Assembly: GCF_964213995.1 (NCBI RefSeq)
Contig: NC_135812.1
Coordinates: 33,170,001 to 33,234,000, forward strand
Direction of reading: 5' to 3'
From: Mustelus asterias
Taxonomy: Eukaryota
DNA length: 64,000 nucleotides
Shown here: positions 3,377 to 47,379 of the stretch, one piece after another
Numbering within the stretch: the stretch's first letter is position 1
Layout of the letters: the number at the start of each line of letters is the position of its first letter
Made by a program: the position numbers and the translations under genes
The notes under the pieces: model-generated
The model's input: the letters and a program-made list of their open reading frames with translations, nothing else
The model's database searches: none
What the model was told of the DNA's origin: nothing

Positions 3377-4964
3377 CTACAGGAGGAAAGCAATAATTAA
3401 CTCAAAATTAAGAATCCATAATTTAAGTATCTGACAATCTCATAAATGCTTTTAATTGTGAGAGTTGACCAAATTCATTAAACCAAATGGTTCATAAATT
3501 ATATTGGAAGAAGAAATTCAGTGTGAGGTATCATGCAAACTGATAATTTAGTTTGCAAAGGCGACTGGAAAAAAACCATCATCACATATTTAATTGGCAC
3601 ACATGAGTATCTAAGACAGAAATATTACTCTTAAATTGCTTAGAGATCATTTTAATCCAGTTGGAGTTACTTAAATTAAGATTTACTTGGAGTGCATGCT
3701 TATTCATGCCTTGACTTTTCAGGTTTCTTTTGAGGCCTATTCACTTGCCATTTTCCCCCACAAGTTAAATTACTTTCTTCTCCCTGAGCACAGCTAACAG
3801 TTTGCATGTCAACAGATGGAGGTAAAGCCTGCTTAAAGCTACCAACAATATTACTGTTGCCCGCCAGCTATAACTCCCTGCTTCTATTTTCCTTACTACT
3901 GTCTCTCCAAGTAGGAGACAGCTTAGCACACCAGATCTGAAAATGAACAAATCTTTCCAGCATACATGGACTGAACAATACCACACCATGTCACTAACTA
4001 TTGGTAATGCAGACGCACAATTCTGCTGCTCTTTGAGCTTTATTTCCAACCATTAAAGCCTTCATTCTCCTGTACCTTCCTCTATTGTAATCAACACTAG
4101 CTGATATTAAAGCAGTGACCAAACAACTTATTTGATCCAAATTGATAGTTGCTCCTGTCTTTAGATTTCTGCAAAATACTGACTACAATGTTTCAAGTCT
4201 CCAGATTTGGATAACTGGAAAAAGCTGTCCCCTCATTGGTGAATGTTGGTCAATCAGACCAACTTTTACCTATAAGCCTGGAAATTTTCAAGCGTTGAAA
4301 CATTTCTCCCACTTTCATACTGTCTTAGTTGTTAATAGTCTATTTCAACTATTCTCTGTTGTCCTACCCTTTTTTTTAAAACGCCATCCTCTGACATTTA
4401 GTTCTTTCATTTTCCTCATCTCATTCTTTCCCTATCTTCCTACCCCTTTTCTGATCACTGCCTCGCTTCTCAATCACTTGGTGGCCATTTTAAATTGATA
4501 ACCCTATTTTGCATAGGAGACAGCCTTTTCCTATACAAAACCCTTCATAATTTTAAATACATGTATTAAATCACCTTTTAGCCTTCCCTTTTCCAGTGAA
4601 AATACTCTCGGATTACAAGTCTGTCCTCAGAAGTACGTGTCTCAGCTAACCATTTTGTACTGTTCAATTTCCATGGTTTAATATAATATTTTTAAAATAG
4701 GCTGTCCAAAAATGCAAGTGTTCTAACCACCACCAAGTACAAAATTATCATTTTGCTCTTGACTGCTAAACACCAAATTATGAAAACCAAAACACATGGC
4801 TTAATTTGCCTGCACTCATATCAATAAATTATAGACTGGATCCTTATAGTGCTCCTCTCTTCAGCCACATCTACATTTTTGTATTAAATGTTGGCCAATT
4901 TCCTGTCTTTTCTCCCATTGCAAATTACCCAAATGTACATTAATTGCATTTGCCACCTGGATCG

Positions 4965-5278: not shown

Positions 5279-8154
5279 CAACTGTGCTGCCCATCTCTCT
5301 GCCTACTCTAACTTAAATCCATTTGAATTATCTTATCATTGTCCCTCACTGTTCGTCAAAACTCCACTTTTCTGTCATCAACAAATTTGACATAGTGCAT
5401 CCAAAGCAAACCTTTTACCGACAAGGGAACAAAAGCGGACTTGGCCCTGACAGTGGGGCACGCCACCAGCAGCCCATTTTCAGTCCAAGCAATGGCCAGT
5501 AACTCGAGCTCTTTACTTCCTGTCTGTCGACCAACTTTGTCTCTATGTTGATACATCATCCCCTTTTCAGCCATCGTCTGAACTTGTGCAACAAAACTCC
5601 TATGACAGGCCTTATCAAACCCCTTCTGAAAACCTATCTTTACTACAACACATTTCATCTATCAAATCATCCACTTCTTTAAAAACAAGTTTAAATTTGT
5701 CTCCATTCTTTTCTATTGTTAAGTCTATGATATACTTCAACAGTGTGATCAAATGTTTAATTAAATTCAAAGGGATTTTATTTGGACCATTTTTCCACTC
5801 AAATCATTACAATATTTCTATAATTAATATCACTACTCTTCTGTACTCTGTTCCTTTCCGTCCCTCCTGGAAGCTTTGCATTCAGGTATCAGGTCAGGTT
5901 CAGTAATTGCTACTGTATCATGACTTTCTACTTTAAGCAATTGCTCCTATCCCCCAATTTTGTTACTCACTTTGTATTAAGACATTTTACTTTAGGGTTA
6001 CCCTGATTAGACAAATTTGCCTTGCTATGCTTTTCCAGGTTTAACTTTGTTTTAATTATCTGATCCTATTCAAACACATTTAGCCTTTCTACTGCCTCTT
6101 TATCTATATTTAACACATGCACTGCTTTCTAAGCTGCCTACTTTTGTCCTCTCCCTTACCCTTGATATAACCCTTCACCACAGCTCTAGCTAACCAGATT
6201 GTGGAGACAGAGGCCCTAGTTCTGTTCCAGTCTGAGGCATCTCATCAAGAGTACAGCTAAACCAAACCTCAGGAAATTGAACCCTTCCTTCCTACATCAG
6301 GCCTACAGCCACTCATTTACCTTCCTAATCATATTGTTCTTTGGTTTGCTAATATGTGGCAGTAAACACAAAATTACCTTTGACGTTGTGCTTCTTAATC
6401 CAGCTTCTAACAAATATCTTTCATTACTTATTTTCCTCCAAATTATTGGTTCCAACAGGAACAATAATTTTCAGTTAGTTTCCTGTCCTCTCCAAAAATT
6501 CTGCATCAACTCTTATGTCCCTTAACTGGATTGCTGGTGACACCACAAAGAACTCCGTCCACTCTCTGGGGGGAGTTTCCCACTACCACTGTGTTCCTAC
6601 CTAATTCTCTCTTCTTTGGATAATCACTTTTTCCGACTGAACAGTGCAATTTGTCTCCAATTGTGCCACAAGTTCAGTATTTTTGAGCTCAAATCAGCCC
6701 ATTTAATAACTTTTCTATATATGTGACTGACCTGGACAATCAATTCCAGAAAGTCCTATATCATGGAAAGTTTGGTGGAACATAGTTCCACTATCTGAAA
6801 CTGAACTTCAGTATCAAACTCCTGGAGTCTCTCAGCTGCTTCTTGCTCTGCCGACCTCTCGGAGCTCGATTGCTTCTCACTTGTACAATCTAGTCAGCAT
6901 ACATACTCATGATCCTTACTGCCCCTTTCTTATCTGAGTTTAAATCAAAGTTATGTAACTTATCTTTAGTACAGTGGTGGAAAAGTTTTATATGTTTCAC
7001 CAGTATTCACACTGCGCCCCTAGATTCAAAAGACATAAAAACATGCTGATGGGGAGAAAATCCTAGTAGGTAGAGAAAATTTTAAACCCTTAGGCATTTA
7101 AGACACTAACAGAGCTACCAGCACTGAATCAAATGACTCTACATAAGCTAACAAGGGAACAGTTTACACACGTGAATGCAGTAAAAGATCTAAACAAATG
7201 ATTGTGATTTAAACGTCTATTTTGATATTTTAAATGTATTAACTGTATTTTATAAAGTAATTGTGCATTTTAGCCAAGAGCAGGTTGATGCAAGGTGTGA
7301 TGGTATCAGGACAAACAGACAGAACCACATTCTTAGAAAACAATGAAAATTCAGAATGTGCAAGTTCTTATCAATGAGAGTTGCTAACAGCAGAGTTCTC
7401 AAGGCAGCTTCTCGAATAGGATTAATTCACTGCTCAGATAAGACAATGCCTTCTCAGACATGAGAACACGCATTTGTCTGGCTTGGCCGGTGACATGGTG
7501 AAAACTGGTGGGAATATTAATTGACCTTTGTAGCTCAGCGGCTGAGGTTGCTAAGCAATAGAGGAAGTTGAGTCAGCAATAGGGAGAGGAAGCATCCGGA
7601 TTTTACAGACCAATTAAATCCCATTATGTCAGAGGGTAAAATACAATTAGCGAAAGTATGTGACAGGTGTTATTAATGATTTATGTGTACTGAACATGGT
7701 TGATTCAAAGTTAATGAAAGGCGGGAGAAGTTGATAAGAGAAATCTATAATTGATCTATCCTAAGCTTTGTATGTCAGAGTTATTGGATAGGTCAAGCTG
7801 CTCTCGTCCAGATCGCTGGTCAAATGAAAGTTTTGTCTTTAAACTGGGACACCGGCTTTCGTGAGTCTTTGTATTGGCTGAAGTTTCAGCGATACAAGGT
7901 CTCTGGGGAACCCCGCTAACACATGTGCAGTCCAGCAACCAGATGTTTAACAGTAAAATCCAATCAGATTTGGAGGTGCTCTGGTGCCACAGATATTTAC
8001 ACATCACCTTACAGCTTTCAGGTCATTGATAAGGACTGCTCAAAAACATTGCAGGTACATATATCAAAAATAAACCAACCCTTTTCTGTTAAAACTTCTT
8101 CTGAAAACAAAATCTGTGGAAGAAAAACACAAAATAATTTTTGTGGGCACAGAC

Positions 8155-17029: not shown

Positions 17030-18900
17030 CAGCCCCAGCAATACAGTCCATCACCCACCCATTCCACCAGCAATACAGCCCATCACCCCACCATCCCCCA
17101 GCAATACAGGCCATCACCCCATCCCCCAGCAATACAGTCCATCATCCCCCAGCAAAACAGGCCATCATCCCCCAGCAATACAGTCCATCACCCACCCATT
17201 CCACCAGCAATACAGCCCATCACCCCACCATCCCCCAGCAATACAGCCCATCACCCCACCATCCCCCAGCAATACAGCCCATCACCCCACCATCCCCCAG
17301 CAATACAGTCCATCACCCCCCAATCCCCTAGCAATACTGTCCTTCACCCCCCATCCCCCAACAATACAGCCCATCACCCCAGCAATACAGCCCATCGGCC
17401 CCATCCCCCAGCAATACAGCCCATCACCCCACCATCCCCCAGCAATACAGCCCATCACCCCAGCAATACAGCCCATCGGCCCCATCCCCCAGCAATACAG
17501 TCCATCACCCCATCCCCCAGCAATACAGTCCATCACCCCACCATCCCCCAGCAATACAGCCCATCACCCCCATCCCCGAACAATACTGTCCATCACCCCC
17601 CATCCTCTAGCAATGCAGTCCATCACCCCCACCCCCCAGCAATACAGTCCATCACCCCCATCCCCGAGCAATGCCACCCATCACCCCCCATCCCCCAGCA
17701 ATACAGTCCATCATCCCTCCATTCCCCCAGCAATACGGTCCATCACGCCCCCCCAATCCCCTAGCAATACAGTCCATCACACCTCTCCATCCCCAAGCAA
17801 TAGTCCATCAGTCCCTCCCCCCCATCCCCCAGCAATACAGTCCATCACCGCCCCCCCCATTTCCCTAGCAGTAGAGTCCATCACTCCTATCCCCCAGCAA
17901 TAGTCCATCACCTCCCCATCCCCCAGCAATACAGTCCATCATCCCCCCCATCCCCCAGCAATACAGTCCATCACCCCCCAGCAATAGTCCATCACCTCCC
18001 CATCCCCCAGCAATACTGTCTTTCACCCCCCATCACCCAGCAATACAGTTCATCACCCCCCATCCCCCAGCAATACAGTCCATCACCCCCCCATCCCCCA
18101 GCAATACAGTCCATCACCCCCCCAATCCCCTAGCAATACAGTCCATCACCCCCCCCCAATCCCCTAGCAATACAGCCCATCACCCCCCCCCATCACCCAG
18201 CAATACAGTCCATCACCCCCCCAATCCCCTAGCAATACAGCCCATCACCCCCCCATCACCCAGCAATACAGTCCATCACCCCCCCAATCCCCTAGCAATA
18301 CTGTCCTTCACCCCCCCATCACCCAGCAATACAGTCCATCACCCCCCATCACCCAGCAATACAGTCCATCACCCCCCATCCCCCAACAATACAGTCCATC
18401 ACCCCCCATCACCCAGCAATACAGTCCATCACCCCCATCCCCCAACAATACAGTCCATCACCCCATCCCCAATAATACAGTCCATCACCCCCATCCCCCA
18501 ACAATACAGTCCATCACCCCCATCCCCCAACAGTACAGTCCATCACCCCCATCCCCCAGCAATACAGTCCATCACCCCCATCCCCCAACAATACAGCCCA
18601 TCACCCCCCATCCCATAGCAATGCAGTCCATCAGCCCCCCCAACCCCCTAGCAATGCATTCCATCACCTCCCCATCCCCCAGCAATATAGTCCATCACCA
18701 ACCCCCCCCCCCTCCCCCCCCGCAGCAATACAGTCCATCACCCCCTATCTCTCAGCAATACAGTCCTGCCAGCCCCCAGCCCCATTCCCCCAGCAATAGA
18801 ATCCTGTTAGCACTCACCCCCATTCCTCCAGTAATGCAGTCCTCTCAGCCCCCCAATTCCTCCATCAATGCAGTCTTTTCTGCCCCCTTCATTCCCCCAG
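17030..18900. repeat. C-rich minisatellite, ~29-33 bp unit, decaying towards ~20200
   Basis: Dozens of tandem copies of ccccagcaatacagtccatcacccccat with variable C-run lengths. Confidence 0.95.
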
Positions 18901-30222: not shown

Positions 30223-30484
30223 TGATGTGGAGATGCCGGCGTTGGACTGGGGTAAACACAGTAAGAAGTTTAACAACACCAGGTTAAAGTCCAACAGGTT
30301 TATTTGGTAGCAAAAGCCACACAAGCTTTCGGAGCTGCAAGCCCCTTCTTCAGGTGAGTGGGAATTCTGTTCTGAACAGAATTCCCACTCACCTGAAGAA
30401 GGGGCTTGCAGCTCCGAAAGCTTGTGTGGCTTTTGCTACCAAATAAACCTGTTGGACTTTAACCTGGTGTTGTTAAACTTCTTA
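30223..30484. mobile_element. Penelope-derived perfect palindrome
   Basis: 111-bp arms (30262-30372 and 30374-30484) with a 1-nt spacer; flanked by taatgtaggaaa (30211-30222 and 30485-30496). Confidence 0.9.
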
Positions 30485-40420: not shown

Positions 40421-42373
40421 TGTAATGCACTTCTGTCTGAGAATTCTGTATAGTAACAACAAAAATCTTTTTCAATTATATTATTGAAGAGAAGCATTTG
40501 ACTTCTGGATCAGAAGTGGGAAACATGTTAACGAACTAATACCCAAATCCAGTCAGTCAAACTTCATTCCATTTTTATCTAAGTAACCTTTCACATCTAC
40601 TTTGACTTTTGTACTACTTTATTTTACAAAACAGTTGTATTACATTTTTCATTCCACATTTCTACTTGATCTAACATTCTTCACGTCTCCTATTCAAAAA
40701 TTTCAAATAATATTTACAACTGTTAAACATTCCCCTCACTTCTCTTCAAACTTTTCTCATGCTCTTTTGCATAAACCTTCCCTTTAAATTATTTTTCTGA
40801 ATTAAATAAAATATTTGAATTTAACAGCCAATCTTATGCTTTCTTCTCAAGCATAAGATTTTAATTAAAGCTTCCATGCCAAACTGCAATTCATTAGCAT
40901 TTTGAATACAGTATCTATTTCCATGTTAAAGCTATCCAAACGTGTCCATAAATGTCACCAAAGTACTAGCTATTTTTGGTAAAGATTCAAATGCACTTTA
41001 TCTTGTCCTATGCAAAAAGGTTAAGCCAACCGTGTCTTGTTTTGCCACAGTTCTCTTACAGCTCTGACCTGAACAACTGTCTCTAAGTGCAAAAGAGATG
41101 TGTTTGTTTGATAATGGAAAGAAAACACATTTTCGTTTCAATGATTATAACAAAACTGATTTTAATTCTTTTTGACACTTGCTGAATATAACCCTTGTTT
41201 TTTTGAGTACCTCTAACGTAGTAAAATATTCCAAGATACTTCACAGGAGAGTTATCAAAGTTTGACACTGAGCCATATTGAGGAATTATTAGACAGATGA
41301 CCAATAACTTGGTCAAAGAGATAGGTTTTAAGAAGTAGAAAGAGAGAAAATTCCAGAAGTCAGGGCTTTGTCAGCTCCCAGTTGGCTGGACAACTAGTTT
41401 GTGATGTAGAGCGAGCTCAATTTGTGTACCAGCCGAGGTTATTCATCTCAACTTCATTATTATTCATCTCTTCTCAACCTTGCCCCTACCTGAGGTGCAG
41501 TGATCCTCAGGTTACATCACCACCAGTCAGCTCTCTCTCGCAAAAAGTAGAGCAACCAATGGTCATCTGGGACTATGACGACTTCGTCTTTACCTTTACA
41601 TGGCCACCAGTGGCGAGACAATCAATATCAGGGGTGCTCAAGAGGTCAGAATTAGATAAGTACAGGTACATAAGAGGGCTCTGGAGCTTGAGGTAATTAG
41701 ATAGGAAGAGGTCAGGCCATGGAGGGCTTTGAAACAATTTTAAAGTTCTCCAATAAAAGTCTATTCAATGACATCATTTTTATCTGAGAGATTTATGGTC
41801 AAAGAGGAAGAGAGATTGTAAACATAAAAAGCAATATACTCATGCTGAAAATCAAATTTAAAGCCAGAACATTATAGCAGTACCTGGAAAATAAATTAGC
41901 ACATAAATATAGATTATGGTTTTGCATAGGTATGTTCACGAGCTACTTTGTTTTTTTTTATTGTAACCCAATTGAAATTGGTTACATAAACATCCTTGAT
42001 TGAGTACAATGCTCCAAAATGTCTAAAATGTAAAGCAAACAGTAATTTTAAAAAAATGAGTCAGTGTTTCCAATTTACATCTACAGTATACCTTATACTA
42101 TGATGATATAGATATCTAGGTTTTGAATGAATTCTCATCAGTAACAAAGGAAACACCAGAACTTAAACAGTAACCTTACTCTCTGCTCCTGAGCCCTTCG
42201 AGTTTTAGATTTGGCAACATTGAACTAAAACAGAATCCCAATTTCTCACCAGTAATAATTAACATTCTAATAATTTCCATATTAGAATGTTAAAATGGCA
42301 ATGCACAAATCCACAATTACTTGATAGATCAATCAACAAACTGTCACACAGACCAGAGTTTCATCATTTTGTG

Positions 42374-42664
42374 TTTTTTTAAATCAAGTCCAATTCAGAG
42401 TCTCATCAAGTGAGACATTCCTGATCCAAGCTGACAAGACAGGGCTCTCACCTCCTGTCCTGGGCTTGGTCTACATGATCCAAGCTGATTGGAGTAGGCA
42501 TTGCACCTCCTCCAAAACTTGATCTCATTTGCATCTTAGCCAAAAGGCCGAGATGCCGCATTTAAAAATTGCTTCAAATGAAGCTAAAATGTAACCTAAT
42601 GAGTTCAACCAAGTACAGCATGTGGATACTACACTTGATCTAAGCCAAAAGGCCGAGAAGCGAT
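42374..42664 (-). mobile_element. U2 snRNA-headed retroposed insertion
   Basis: Starts at U2 nt 1 (ATCGCTTCTCGGCCTTTTGGCTtAGATCAAGTGTAGTATC, 39/40 match to vertebrate U2 as recalled), contains a second U2 nt 7-27 copy at 42533-42553, ends in A7, and is absent from the paralogous sequence at 46480-46495. Confidence 0.85.
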
Positions 42665-42879
42665 TTGTTGTGGTCACAAATTGAACTCGAAACTACAATC
42701 CAGTTTTGAAAGTACACAAAAAATATTTTTGTGGAAAATTTTAGTCTTAGATTTAATGTTAGTAATTGTCTCATTTTACGCTTACTTTGATACTGGCTCA
42801 ATATAATGCCATTTTGTTCACCATACATTCCAGTGCCATTTTGTTTCTGCTTAAAATGAATAAATTCAGAGACATGTTG

Positions 42880-43170
42880 GGGTGGCATGGTGGCACAGTG
42901 GTTAGCACTGCTGCCTCAGTGCCAGGGACCTGGGTTCGATTCCTGGCTTGGGTCACTGTCTGTGCAGAGTCTGCACGTTTTTCCTTGTCTCTGCGGGTGC
43001 CCCGCTTCCTCCCACAGTCCCAAAGATCTGCTCGTTAGGTTCATTGGCCCTGCTAAATTCTCCCTCAGCGTACCCGAACAGGAGTGTGGTGACTAGGGAT
43101 TTTCACAGAAACCTCATTGCGCAGCTAATGTAAGCCTACTTGTGACACTAATAACTAAAATTAATAAAAA
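42880..43170 (+). mobile_element. V-domain SINE with an alternative tail
   Basis: ggggtggcatggtggcacagtggttagcactgctgcctca head and V core; tail aagcctacttgtgacactaataa differs from the HE1 tail. Confidence 0.8.
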
Positions 43171-43380
43171 CATTTAAATAGTCCTATAGTGCAGTCGGTA
43201 CTCAAAACAAATGGGTTGCCTGGTTTGAATTTTTGACAGAGGCAGATTTGTGTCACAGCTAGATTTGTGCCAGGGCTTACTTAGCCATGGTGGTCAAAGA
43301 GGAAGAGAGATTGTACACTTAAAAAGCAATATACTTGTGCTGAAAATCAAATTTACAGCCAGAACATGATAGCTGTACCC

Positions 43381-45035
43381 TCTCCCTCAACGTCAATAAA
43401 ACGAAGGAGATTGTCATCGACTTCAGGAAGCGCAAAGGAGAACATGCTCCTGTCTACATCAATGGGGACGAAGTAGAAAGGGTCGAGAGCTTCAGGAGTT
43501 TAGGTGTCCAGATCACCAACAGCCTGTCCTGGTACCCCCATGCTGACACTATAGTTAAGAAAGCCCACCAACGCCTCTAAATTCTCAGAAGACTAAGGAA
43601 ATTTGGCATATCAGCTACGACTCTCACCAACTTTTACAGATGCACCATAGAAAGCATTCTGTCTGGATGTATCACAGCTTGGTATAGCTCCTGCTCTGCC
43701 CAAGACTGCAAGGAACTACAAAAGGTCGTAAATGTAGCCCAATCCATCACGCAAACCAACCTCCCATCCATTGACTCCATCTACACTTCCCGCTGCCTCG
43801 GCAAAGCAGCCAGCATAATTAAGGACCCCACGCACCCCGGACATTCTCTCTTCCACCGTCTTCCTTCAGGAAAAGATACAAAAGTCTGAGGTCACATACC
43901 AACTGACCCAAGAACAACTTCTTCTCTGCTATTGTCAGACTTTTGAATGAACATAAGAACATAAGAAATAGGAGCAGGAGTAGGCCATCTAGCCCCTCGA
44001 GCCTGCCCCGCCATTCAATAAGATCATGGCTGATCTGAAGTGGATCAGTTCCACTTACCCGCCTGATCCCTATAACCCCTAATTCCCTTACCGATCAGGA
44101 ATCCATCTATCCGTGATTTAAACATATTCAACGAGGTAGCCTCCACCACTTCAGTGGGCAGAGAATTCCAGAGATTCACCATCCTCTGAGAGAAAAAGTT
44201 CCTCCTCAACTCTGTCCTAAACTGACCCCCCTTTATTTTGAGGCTGTGCCCTCTAGTTCTAGTTTCCTTTCTAAGTGGAAAGAATCTCTCCATCTCTACC
44301 CTATCCAGCCCCTTCATTATCTTATAGGTCTCTATAAGATCCCCCCTCAGCCTTCTAAATTCCAACGAATACAAACCCAATCTGCTCAGTCTCTCCTCAT
44401 AATCAACACCCCTCATCTCTGGTATCAACCTGGTGAACTTTCTCTGCACTCCCTCCAAGGCCAATACATCCTTCCGCAAATAAGGGGACCAATACTGCAC
44501 ACAGTATTCCAGCTGCGGCCTCACCAATGCCCTGTACAGATGCAGCAAGACATCTCTGCTTTTATATTCTATCCCTCTTGCGATATAGGATAACATCCCA
44601 TTTGCCTTCTTGATCACCTGTTGCACCTGCAGACTGGGTTTTTGCATCTCATGCACAAGGACCCCCAGGTCCCTCTGCACAGCAGCATGTTGTAATTTCT
44701 TTCCATTTAGATAATAATCCGATTTGCTATTATTCCTTCCAAAGTGAATAACCTCGCATTTGTTAACGTTATACTCCATCTGCCAGATCCTCGCCCACTC
44801 ACTCAGCCTGTCCAAATCTCTCTGCAGACCTGCTACACCCTCCACACGATTCACTTTTTGGGACTTACCTTGCATTAAATTGATCTTTCTCTACACCCTA
44901 ACTATGACTGTAACACTACATTCTGCACTCTCTCGTTTCCTTCTCTATGAATGGTATGCTTTGTCTATATAGCGCGCAAGAAACAATACTTTTCACTGTA
45001 TGTTAATACATGTGACAATAATAAATCAAACCAAA
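43381..45035 (+). mobile_element. Rex1/Babar-like LINE 3' fragment split by a CR1 insertion
   Basis: Translates as SLNVNKTKEIVIDFRK...IVKKAHQRL*ILRRLRKFG...FYRCTIESILSGCITAWY...IIKDPTHPGH; the 3' UTR resumes at about 44860 and ends gacaataataaatcaaacc. Confidence 0.8.
43950..44853 (-). mobile_element. 5'-truncated CR1 LINE
   Basis: ORF with LQRDLDRLSEWA..WQMEYN, RPQLEYCVQYW, FFSQRMVNLWNSLP; (ttcttatg)n tail. Confidence 0.93.
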
Positions 45036-45250
45036 GACTAGTTAGTACCTAAATAAAGATAGATTATGGTTCTTTTTCAATGGCCTCACCTCTTCCTATC
45101 TCTCAGTGCACCAAGGTCAAATATCAGCAGCTTGAAATGTGCGCAAAATAATTGTAAGACTCTTTGAGGTGTGGTTCTCCCAAAAATCAAATTTAAAGCC
45201 AGAACGTTATAGCAGTACCCAGAAGATGAGTTAGCATCTAAATAAAGATA

Positions 45251-45368
45251 TGATGTGGCAATGCCAGGTTTGGACTGTGGTGGGCACCTGATGAAGGAGC
45301 AGCACTCCGAAAGCTTGTGATTCCAAATAAACCTGTTGGACTTTAACCTGGTGTTGTGAGGCTTCTTA
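45251..45368. mobile_element. Short Penelope insertion with hammerhead motif
   Basis: Inverted terminal stub followed by cac-ctgatga-a-ggag(cagca)ctcc-gaaa-gct-t-gtg; flanked by ctaaataaagata and ctaaataaaaata. Confidence 0.85.
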
Positions 45369-45559
45369 CTAAATAAAAATAGATTATGGTTCTTTTTCCA
45401 TGGCCTCACCTCTTCCTATCTCTCAGTGCACCAAGGTCAAATATCAGCAGCTTGAAATGTGTGCAGATTAATGGTAAGACTCTTTGAGATGTGGCTCCCC
45501 CGAGATGATGAACAGGAAAACCTTGGAGCTCATTCCTGGAATGAAGGAGGGTTTTCCAT

Positions 45560-45690
45560 TTTAGCTGAGCAGCCGAGGCCTGAGACTGCTGTTGCTAGGG
45601 AAGGAGGCCGTTCGGCCAGGCCGGCGGCGCATGCGCATGTCCCTGGGCGCCGGGGTGAATGTCACCTCCACAGCAAGATGGCGGCCAGAG
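45560..45690 (+). promoter_or_regulatory. NIPSNAP2: CpG-island promoter of NIPSNAP2
   Basis: NRF1 site gcgcatgcgca (45627-45637), RFX-like gttgctagggaa (45591), YY1-like caagatggcggc overlapping the ATG. Confidence 0.75.
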
Positions 45691-45799
45691 TTCTTGGTAA
45701 CATTGTGGCCTCTGCGAGGAGGGCCACAGCCCGGGTACAAGGCGAAGGCCGGGCCCTGGCGGCAATCGCTACCAAGACTGGCACCGCAACGACAGCCAG
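45678..45799 (+). CDS. NIPSNAP2: NIPSNAP2 (GBAS) exon 1, mitochondrial presequence-like
   Basis: MAARVLGNIVASARRATARVQGEGRALAAIATKTGTATTAR, donor AG|GTCAGT in phase 2, compatible with exon 2. Confidence 0.85.
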
Positions 45800-47379
45800 G
45801 TCAGTGTACCCCGCGAGGCTGCCTCGCCTCTGCCGTCGCTTCGGGCTTCAAAACATTGCTGGAGGCCGACCCGAGGTAAACTGAGACAAAGTTTATTCCC
45901 GGCCGGCCGACTGGCCTGGCTGGCGGGCGCCTCCCTTTTTCTGTCCGCCAAAAAAAATGTCAGGTGTCACCGTGCTTCTTTTGTTTTAACTTGTTCCTCC
46001 GCGCAGTCACCAGCAGAGCAAAGTTAATTTAAGCGCTCGGTTTAGCAGGTGTCCTGATGGTACGGCCGGCAATTAATTAGCTGCAAATCTATTTCCCATG
46101 CTTAACTCGGAAGTTATTTTTTGCAGACTCGCATTTGCAGGGTTTACATTTTTGTCAAGGTCATTTTATCTTAAGCAATTTTAATGTGTTGCTAGGGCCG
46201 TTTTCGTGTATCCATTCTGTTCAAAATACAATCCTTCGTTGGGTAACTAACTACACCAATTGGTTTATGAAAACTACTTAAATACGCCTCTGAATTTGTT
46301 CATTTCCAGCAAAAAAAGACATTGGAATGTATGGCGAACAAGCTGTTGTGTTTGTATCAGAGCAAGAGTAAAACAAGACAGTTACTAGCATTAAACCTAA
46401 GACTAAAATCTTCCACAAAAATGTAATTTTTTTGTATACTTTCAAAACTGAATTATAGTTTCGAGTTCAATTCGTGATCACAACAAAAATATAAAACTCT
46501 GGTCTATATGACAATTTGTTGATTGTTATAGCAAGGAATTATGGATTTGTGGGCATTGACATTTTAACATTCTACTATGGGACAGGAAAATGTTACTTGT
46601 GAGAAATTCGGATTCTCATTTTAGTGTTATCCAGACTTTTTTTTCACCAATGTGGTTGTTCCAAAAAGGAAGGGAGCATGCCCTTATCTGGTTTGTTGTG
46701 ATGAAATGAGCAATTGGACAACCTAAAAAAAACTGACCACAATGCAATTTTGTTCCATGTGAGACTAAGAACATAAAATTGGGTACTCACATAGTCTAAA
46801 GTACAACATTCCACAATACTGTAGTATTAGACCAATGTGCTATACAAACGCAGAATCACATTCTGAGATGTATGCTCTATTTCTCTGACTAAACACTTAA
46901 TATCCTGTTTACTCTATCCCCTGCTGTTCCAACATTGCGTTGATAGATTCAGTTGTCCAAAATGTTCAGATGAAAAGAGGGAATATTGAAAATGGAGCTA
47001 GAAGTACATTGTCGATGGATGAATAGGGAGAAAAGACCATGTGTAACTTTAAAGAAGTTAGAGGACTTAATTGTGATGCAAGGTGGCGTCACCTCTAACT
47101 GAGCTGACTAAAAGACATTGCTGCTAGACCAGCTCTCTGTGACAGGTAGTGAGGAGAACACCGACTTGACTTTGTCCTCACCAATCTACCAGTAGCAGGT
47201 GCATCTGTCCATGACAGCGTAGGAGTGACCACTGCACTCATGGCATCCTTCTTCAGCCAGAGGTGCTGACTAGATGTTCTTGGGCTCTTCCTGAAACTCC
47301 TGGCATCACTGATGTAAGTTTTCAGTCAGTTTGATTCACTTCACTTGATGTCAAGAAACAGCTGAAGGCACTGGATACT

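Follow-up and report, generated by a model that had tools for sequence, protein, structure and literature searches.

Several described systems come close to the element reported here. Short interspersed elements (SINEs) headed by small nuclear RNA (snRNA) are known from crocodilians as SINEU-1, -2 and -3 (Kojima 2015, PMC4494074). In the sections of that paper on which we draw, SINEU is reported only from crocodilians, prefers Mariner-N4_AMi and has Tx1-Mar as its partner; how snRNA-headed SINEs are transcribed is left open there, the U1 and U2 promoters being external and not copied with the RNA. Keno is a U2-specific long interspersed element (LINE) of the Tx1 clade, as outlined in PMC4494074 and PMC4640811. 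The R2 SIDEs of Drosophila derive from R2/R1 by internal deletion and have a 5' ribozyme; the relevant sections of Eickbush & Eickbush 2012 (PMC3414825) describe them as rare. We analyzed a 64,000-nucleotide stretch of the Mustelus asterias genome (NC_135812.1, positions 33,170,001 to 33,234,000), here called the window, in which a 291-bp minus-strand insert had been predicted to be either a U2-headed SINE or a retrocopy of a U2::Keno-like read-through transcript. The insert, hereafter the window copy, is almost certainly a member of a high-copy, dispersed family of U2-headed SINEs. This family is probably a SINEU-like non-autonomous retroposon that parasitizes Keno and is transcribed from U2 promoters.

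The insert belongs to a dispersed SINE family

Searching the genome of origin (3.68 Gb) with the 291-bp insert gave at least 41 matches, nearly all about 95% identical over nt 1 to 284 (2,321 candidates, 40 scored). A 22-mer across the head/body junction of the window copy's subfamily has at least 523 exact matches (control, 0), and an internal 26-nt hairpin common to all subfamilies has at least 3,573 (controls, 0); both counts are lower bounds. The first 30 hairpin matches on contig C1 (C and L numbers are our labels for contigs and loci) have a U2 head in 28 cases and the short tail end in all 30. These 30 loci split into several subfamilies, with the head/body junction lying anywhere from about U2 nt 34 to 40, and at 7 of them a second SINE copy lies within 1.5 kb.

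The element is about 300 bp long and non-coding. Of 90 copies, 42 have target duplications of at least 12 bp (up to one mismatch), versus 8 of 400 mismatched control pairs; the count leaves out loci where the tail (L028, L050, L067) or the head (L085, L091) was not found, and L047. Among 62 copies not picked by similarity rank, the 5' end falls at U2 nt 1 in 15, within nt 1-5 in 35, and within nt 1-15 in 60. Copy number, shared ends and target duplications thus confirm a U2-headed SINE family, the first of the two predicted identities. A classical RNA polymerase (Pol) III SINE, which has an internal A/B-box promoter from tRNA, 7SL or 5S and lacks an internal T-run terminator, was considered and rejected: an Rfam scan of the window copy returned only U2, and T4-T5 runs inside the element are near-invariant.

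At four loci (L024, L082, L175, L176), extra U2 fragments (nt 1-40, 13-37, 24-50) are stacked ahead of the SINE head, a recurrent addition of heads as in SINEU-2. Outside this genome, runs from four other organisms (A to D) were searched with a query lacking the U2 head and gave 0, 116, 102 and 99 contigs at least 80% alike. The RNA type of these runs is a guess, and the comparison informs on related sequence, neither on transcription nor on the head. Related sequence thus occurs in organisms B, C and D.

The SINE shares a target site with Keno

The SINE tail runs directly into U2 nt 38/39 onward at nine places (control, 0). Eight of these junctions have the element body; they lie at seven loci and involve different subfamilies, including that of the window copy (L114). 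At the ninth (L121), a tail remnant is present and a body is not detectable, and two further cases at the U2 site (L131, L122) are degenerate. The Keno 3' junction falls at the same U2 nucleotide, nt 38. The genome contains 108 intact U2 nt-38 sites, at which about 0.001 junctions would be expected had 10,000 copies inserted at random. At L120 and L115, U2 nt 38-55 and 38-53 are duplicated on both sides of the element, as is typical of Keno. We observe the junctions and infer the enzyme from them: it is very likely Keno that mobilizes the SINE.

The true U2 genes lie on contig C24 in arrays with units of 1,833 bp and about 8,035 bp. The longer unit holds a LINE (L044) with a zinc-knuckle open reading frame (ORF) 1, an APE-type endonuclease and a reverse transcriptase (RT); its domains are PF03372, PF00078 (below the curated cut-off, in a partial frame), PF13966 and PF00098. 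The order is U2 13-58, the LINE's own U2 5-35 head, the LINE body, and then U2 38-191. Judged by target and domain content, this LINE appears to be Keno of the Tx1 clade. The copy is frameshifted and has been co-amplified with U2 as the tandem unit of about 8,035 bp (G000:C24 ~44.815-44.94 Mb), and 16 intact U2 matches occur in the region at that spacing. A second, older Keno-like tail type (L124:8481-8971; L126; L046) is about 77% identical to the L044 copy and is followed by U2 38+. In several units of the 1,833-bp array, U2 nt 18-37 is repeated in place of about nt 38-50, adjoining the Keno nick site; these repeats are possibly scars of abortive insertion that spread through the array.

A Keno tail motif has 722 exact matches spread across contigs, a dispersal that indicates relaxed specificity of Keno in this genome. 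The SINE lies within 1.5 kb at 6 of the first 20 Keno-tail loci (5 of 19 independent ones), and at three of these six it stands directly behind the Keno tail.

Some copies lie behind U2 upstream flanks

Through the SINE/U2 junctions we found a second type of U2 gene (type 2; 448-bp unit, contig C21, 175 bits), about 90% identical to the main type. The type-2 cluster (L134-L141, G000:C21 28.05-28.08 Mb) is small and mostly filled by Keno and the SINE. The type-2 upstream flank together with the start of the head has 12 exact matches, of which six continue into the SINE, two into Keno and four into intact U2. At L119 the order is intact U2, spacer, full-head SINE, U2 38-185, and at L122 one degraded SINE lies behind a type-1 U2 flank. 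By inspection, the upstream flanks of U1, type-1 U2 and type-2 U2 have a common short motif near -53 to -43, a putative proximal sequence element.

In three dispersed composites (L129, L133 and L128), U2-array spacer precedes the SINE, and duplications of 16, 18 and 10 bp, respectively, surround both. Array sequence was therefore copied out together with the element. Composites of this type presuppose either a template jump or read-through that began in a unit farther upstream, and they show array origin, not initiation at +1. The copies residing in the arrays are probable sources. The dispersed copy L107 and one of the SINE units in L117 share 99.3% identity. Initiation at U2 +1 is suggested by the 5' ends that pile up at U2 nt 1, and judging from these genomic arrangements it is likely that the source copies are driven by U2 promoters.

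Predicted RNA structure and origin of the body

The sense strand is strongly structured compared with shuffled sequence, with z scores of -5.38 for the window copy and -7.76 for L086. The consensus of 26 copies is predicted to form five hairpin domains and a weak tail helix, and 48 of its 49 gapped columns are unpaired. Element nt 45-72 repeat U2 nt 11-38 in inverted and diverged form. In this fold-back arm, transitions are found at 8 of the 17 positions facing G or U and at none of the 11 facing A or C (Fisher p ~0.01 in a single comparison whose register came from the fold). The pattern fits selection on pairing of the sense-strand RNA, with editing as an alternative. In the model, the fold-back helix covers most of the branch-point-pairing segment, and the most likely role of the arm would be to stop this part of U2 from being paired to pre-mRNA or bound by splicing factors. 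In 19 of the 26 rows, three of the hairpins start with a motif resembling U2 nt 24-31; growth of the body by duplication of head-derived modules is suggested.

Sm sites lie between hairpins and have the consensus purine-A-U-run-G. The U-run that had been placed where U2 has its Sm site is present (element nt 95-102), but it does not hold up as one: the base after the run is A in 18 rows, T in 7, C in 1 and G in none of the 26, and subfamilies differ in how far the run lies from the 5' end. The octamer noticed earlier is likewise present (42534-42527); in the predicted fold it falls within stem arms, and a role as an enhancer was rejected.

Between the body and the 5' untranslated region (UTR) of the one Keno copy compared (L044) there is no match, 142/300 and 184/300 shuffles scoring as well, and the body matches neither U2 41-191, antisense U2 nor U1. 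The second predicted identity, a retrocopy of a U2::Keno read-through transcript, therefore fared only partly well. Copies do occupy the Keno site with U2 upstream sequence ahead of them, but nt 41 onward is unlike the L044 Keno 5' UTR, so the element is not a simple read-through copy.

A proposed life cycle and its alternatives

We propose a cycle of four steps. The unit of about 300 bp has spread as a complete copy, with target duplications, to thousands of places. Keno endonuclease/RT would sometimes place the element at U2 nt 38 within U2 genes, where resolution of the 5' junction inside the shared U2 head would leave a full-length element behind the U2 upstream flank. Pol II would then transcribe these U2-site copies, starting at U2 +1 under the external U2 promoter; this would explain why copies start at U2 nt 1 without an internal promoter. 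Finally, as the transductions suggest, array copies could seed dispersed copies, because Keno specificity is relaxed in this genome. We cautiously favor the cycle in its full form, a SINE with two niches: reinsertion by Keno at the U2 site would regenerate a promoter-driven full-length element, thousands of promoterless copies would lie elsewhere, and the antisense arm would hide the branch-point segment.

Several observations weigh against this scheme. A strict search for the type-1 flank joined to the SINE gave 0 matches, and the 3 matches of a looser search have only 4-5 shared upstream bases and are not support. An array context behind a promoter is seen only at L119 (C21 cluster) and at the degraded L122 (C24). 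The other promoter-flanked copies are displaced composites, and because these carry extra upstream DNA, the composite RNA did not begin at the adjacent +1. None of 65 position-sampled loci (35 + 30) continues into U2 38+, so less than 1% of copies sit at U2 sites. In the window copy's own subfamily, L114 is the sole U2-site junction, and it has no promoter flank. The start at U2 +1 is read from genomic sequence. Covariation is weak: a single pair of the consensus fold changed on both sides, and 476/500 shuffles reach as high. Since compensatory double changes are scarce, support for the fold comes from the placement of indels and from changes tolerated by G-U pairing. In comparisons with two Keno tail types, the last 70 nt are colinear by eye, but the best result, 4/500 shuffles among 30 comparisons, is not significant; a looser test gave 1/300. 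The original prediction that nt 41 onward might match an end of Keno thus failed for the 5' UTR and came no closer than this for the tail. For the master locus behind a U2 promoter that it had also envisaged there are candidates: the type-2 flank runs into the SINE in half of its 12 matches, but mostly in displaced composites.

The same array composites bear on an alternative in which a true SINE is mobilized by Keno or another Tx1 element but transcribed from unrelated upstream promoters, its U2-array copies are dead ends, and its heads come anew from template switches to U2 snRNA. Kojima proposed unrelated upstream promoters for the crocodilian SINEU, and the passages on SINEU also describe recurrent head addition (PMC4494074). 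In our data, the stacked U2 fragments look like template jumps, and the head/body junction varies among subfamilies. However, the composites flanked by duplications carry U2-array spacer, so array DNA was the template, and a typical copy ends at U2 nt 1, beyond which the flank is unrelated; we consider this alternative unlikely.

Host function offers another account, in which the masters would be variant snRNA genes, or genes for a structured non-coding RNA, under U2-type promoters, and the dispersed copies would be their processed pseudogenes. The strong conserved fold with indels confined to loops would suit such genes, as would the similar sequence in the runs of three other organisms. We nevertheless hold this account to be very doubtful, as the element has no canonical Sm site and no similarity to U2 41-191, forms many successive subfamilies with an A-rich tail, and has promoter-flanked copies inserted into U2 genes at the Keno site; nor did the loci retrieved include a tandem gene array of the element.

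U2-LINE chimeras are described in the relevant part of PMC4494074, but a sum of independent chimeric retrocopies, or the single-copy or truncated U2 pseudogene beside unrelated DNA that had been named as the outcome opposed to a family, is ruled out for practical purposes by the one exact junction common to 523 copies and by the shared ends, with a U2 head in nearly all hairpin-picked loci and a short tail, never a run into a LINE, in every one.

Structure and surroundings of the window copy

The window contains one U2-headed SINE copy (Table 1). As predicted, it opens at U2 nt 1, and its head is identical to U2 nt 1-40 of its own genome at 39 of 40 positions; the Rfam U2 model scores 59 bits on the copy, from the head plus loose pairing. 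The second copy of stem-loop I, the 13-bp internal repeat (42422-42434 and 42476-42488) and the A7 end were all found where they had been noticed. The tail is shortened relative to the family, whose members have about 12-25 more bases before the A-run.

The empty paralogous site is real. The flanks at 42664-42871 and 42224-42372 are about 78% identical to the inverted segments 46288-46487 and 46483-46625, 3.6 kb from the copy. Apart from the insert itself, the filled allele is only about 4 bases longer at the junction than this empty paralog. The flanks had been read as a decayed target duplication, and the extra bases agree with that; the copy's own duplication is short or decayed and, taken alone, is weak evidence.

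Table 1. Coordinates of the window copy, its empty site and the U2 units with an internal repeat
Feature	Location	Strand	Remarks
Whole U2-headed SINE copy	42374..42664	-	About 96% identical to subfamily majority
Head, U2 snRNA nt 1-40	42625..42664	-	Includes stem-loop I and branch-point-pairing GUAGUA (42632-42627)
Fold-back arm	42593..42620	-	Inverted, diverged copy of U2 nt 11-38; paired with head in consensus fold
Small hairpin	42571..42584	-	Longer loop in other subfamilies
U-run	42563..42570	-	Single-stranded in predicted fold; no G after run in 26/26 rows, not a canonical Sm site
Second U2 stem-loop-I copy	42531..42556	-	Extended to a hairpin; at least 3,573 exact copies genome-wide
Long hairpin module 1	42475..42528	-	3' arm has one copy of the 13-bp repeat
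Long hairpin module 2	42423..42471	-	Second copy of the 13-bp repeat; the only pair changed on both sides
3' hairpin	42400..42416	-	
3' tail	42374..42399	-	Shortened; ends in A7
Inverted paralog of flanks	46288..46625	+	Without insert; empty site near 46483-46487
U2 units with nt 18-37 repeat	L043:2125-2331, 3974-4180; L045:2159-2365, 4002-4208, 5855-6061		

Around the copy, window positions 41796-46625 contain short duplicated segments (41796/43291, 45049/45369, 41848/45183) as well as the inverted flank paralog, and may be a decayed gene region that was duplicated locally. Near 45800-46050 the sequence is GC-rich. Elsewhere in the window are a C-rich minisatellite of about 1.7 kb with a unit of about 30 bp (17033-18702) and a perfect 111-bp inverted repeat with a 1-nt spacer, made by a common interspersed repeat (30262-30484).

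Comparison with described systems

With SINEU, as far as the account in PMC4494074 extends here, the family shares a U2-derived head, a high-copy unit of less than 500 bp, an A-rich 3' tail, target duplications, internal oligo-T, a nested older U2 head, tandem insertion, and a Tx1-clade partner recognized by a shared target. It differs in having the U2 gene itself as shared target and Keno as partner, and in copies that lie behind U2 upstream flanks. Compared by description, it fits SINEU in the general sense but is not SINEU-2 (U1 plus U2) or SINEU-3 (the U2 5' part plus a middle segment) in structure, as it has no U1 segment and no U2 41-191 segment. Within the open-access literature, surveyed mostly superficially, we found no U2-headed SINE outside crocodilians or tied to Keno, and the portion of PMC5786205 that we drew on holds no further one. 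What is new is that the SINE, the Keno site and the U2 upstream flank are linked; U2-headed SINEs as such are known from SINEU, and Repbase and Dfam lie outside this comparison.

The SINE resembles Keno, as the cited sections portray that LINE, in its 3' junction at U2 nt 38, its U2 head, and duplications of about 16-21 bp from nt 38, and the two are interleaved in the same U2 clusters. Unlike Keno, it has no ORF, and its body is unlike the 5' UTR of the L044 Keno copy. Its tail aligns with Keno tails by eye, though not significantly, and an origin of the SINE by internal deletion of Keno is at most hypothetical.

The candidate source loci (e.g., G000:C21 near 28.064 Mb), with promoter flank, partner LINE and transduction footprints, make the question of how snRNA-headed SINEs are transcribed directly testable, and the two-niche cycle, if true, would answer it directly. 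The fold-back arm suggests, in addition, that selection may favor masking of the splicing-active segment in an RNA whose 5' end is that of U2.

Like the R2 SIDEs, as the relevant sections of PMC3414825 present them, the SINE is non-autonomous and inserts at the site of its own LINE in a multicopy RNA gene, on which its transcription would depend. Unlike them, it has a novel body, no Rfam ribozyme match, and thousands of copies outside the target gene. The comparison suggests that the U2 gene and Keno together can sustain a parasite of high copy number, comparable to the R2 SIDEs in rDNA but far more abundant.
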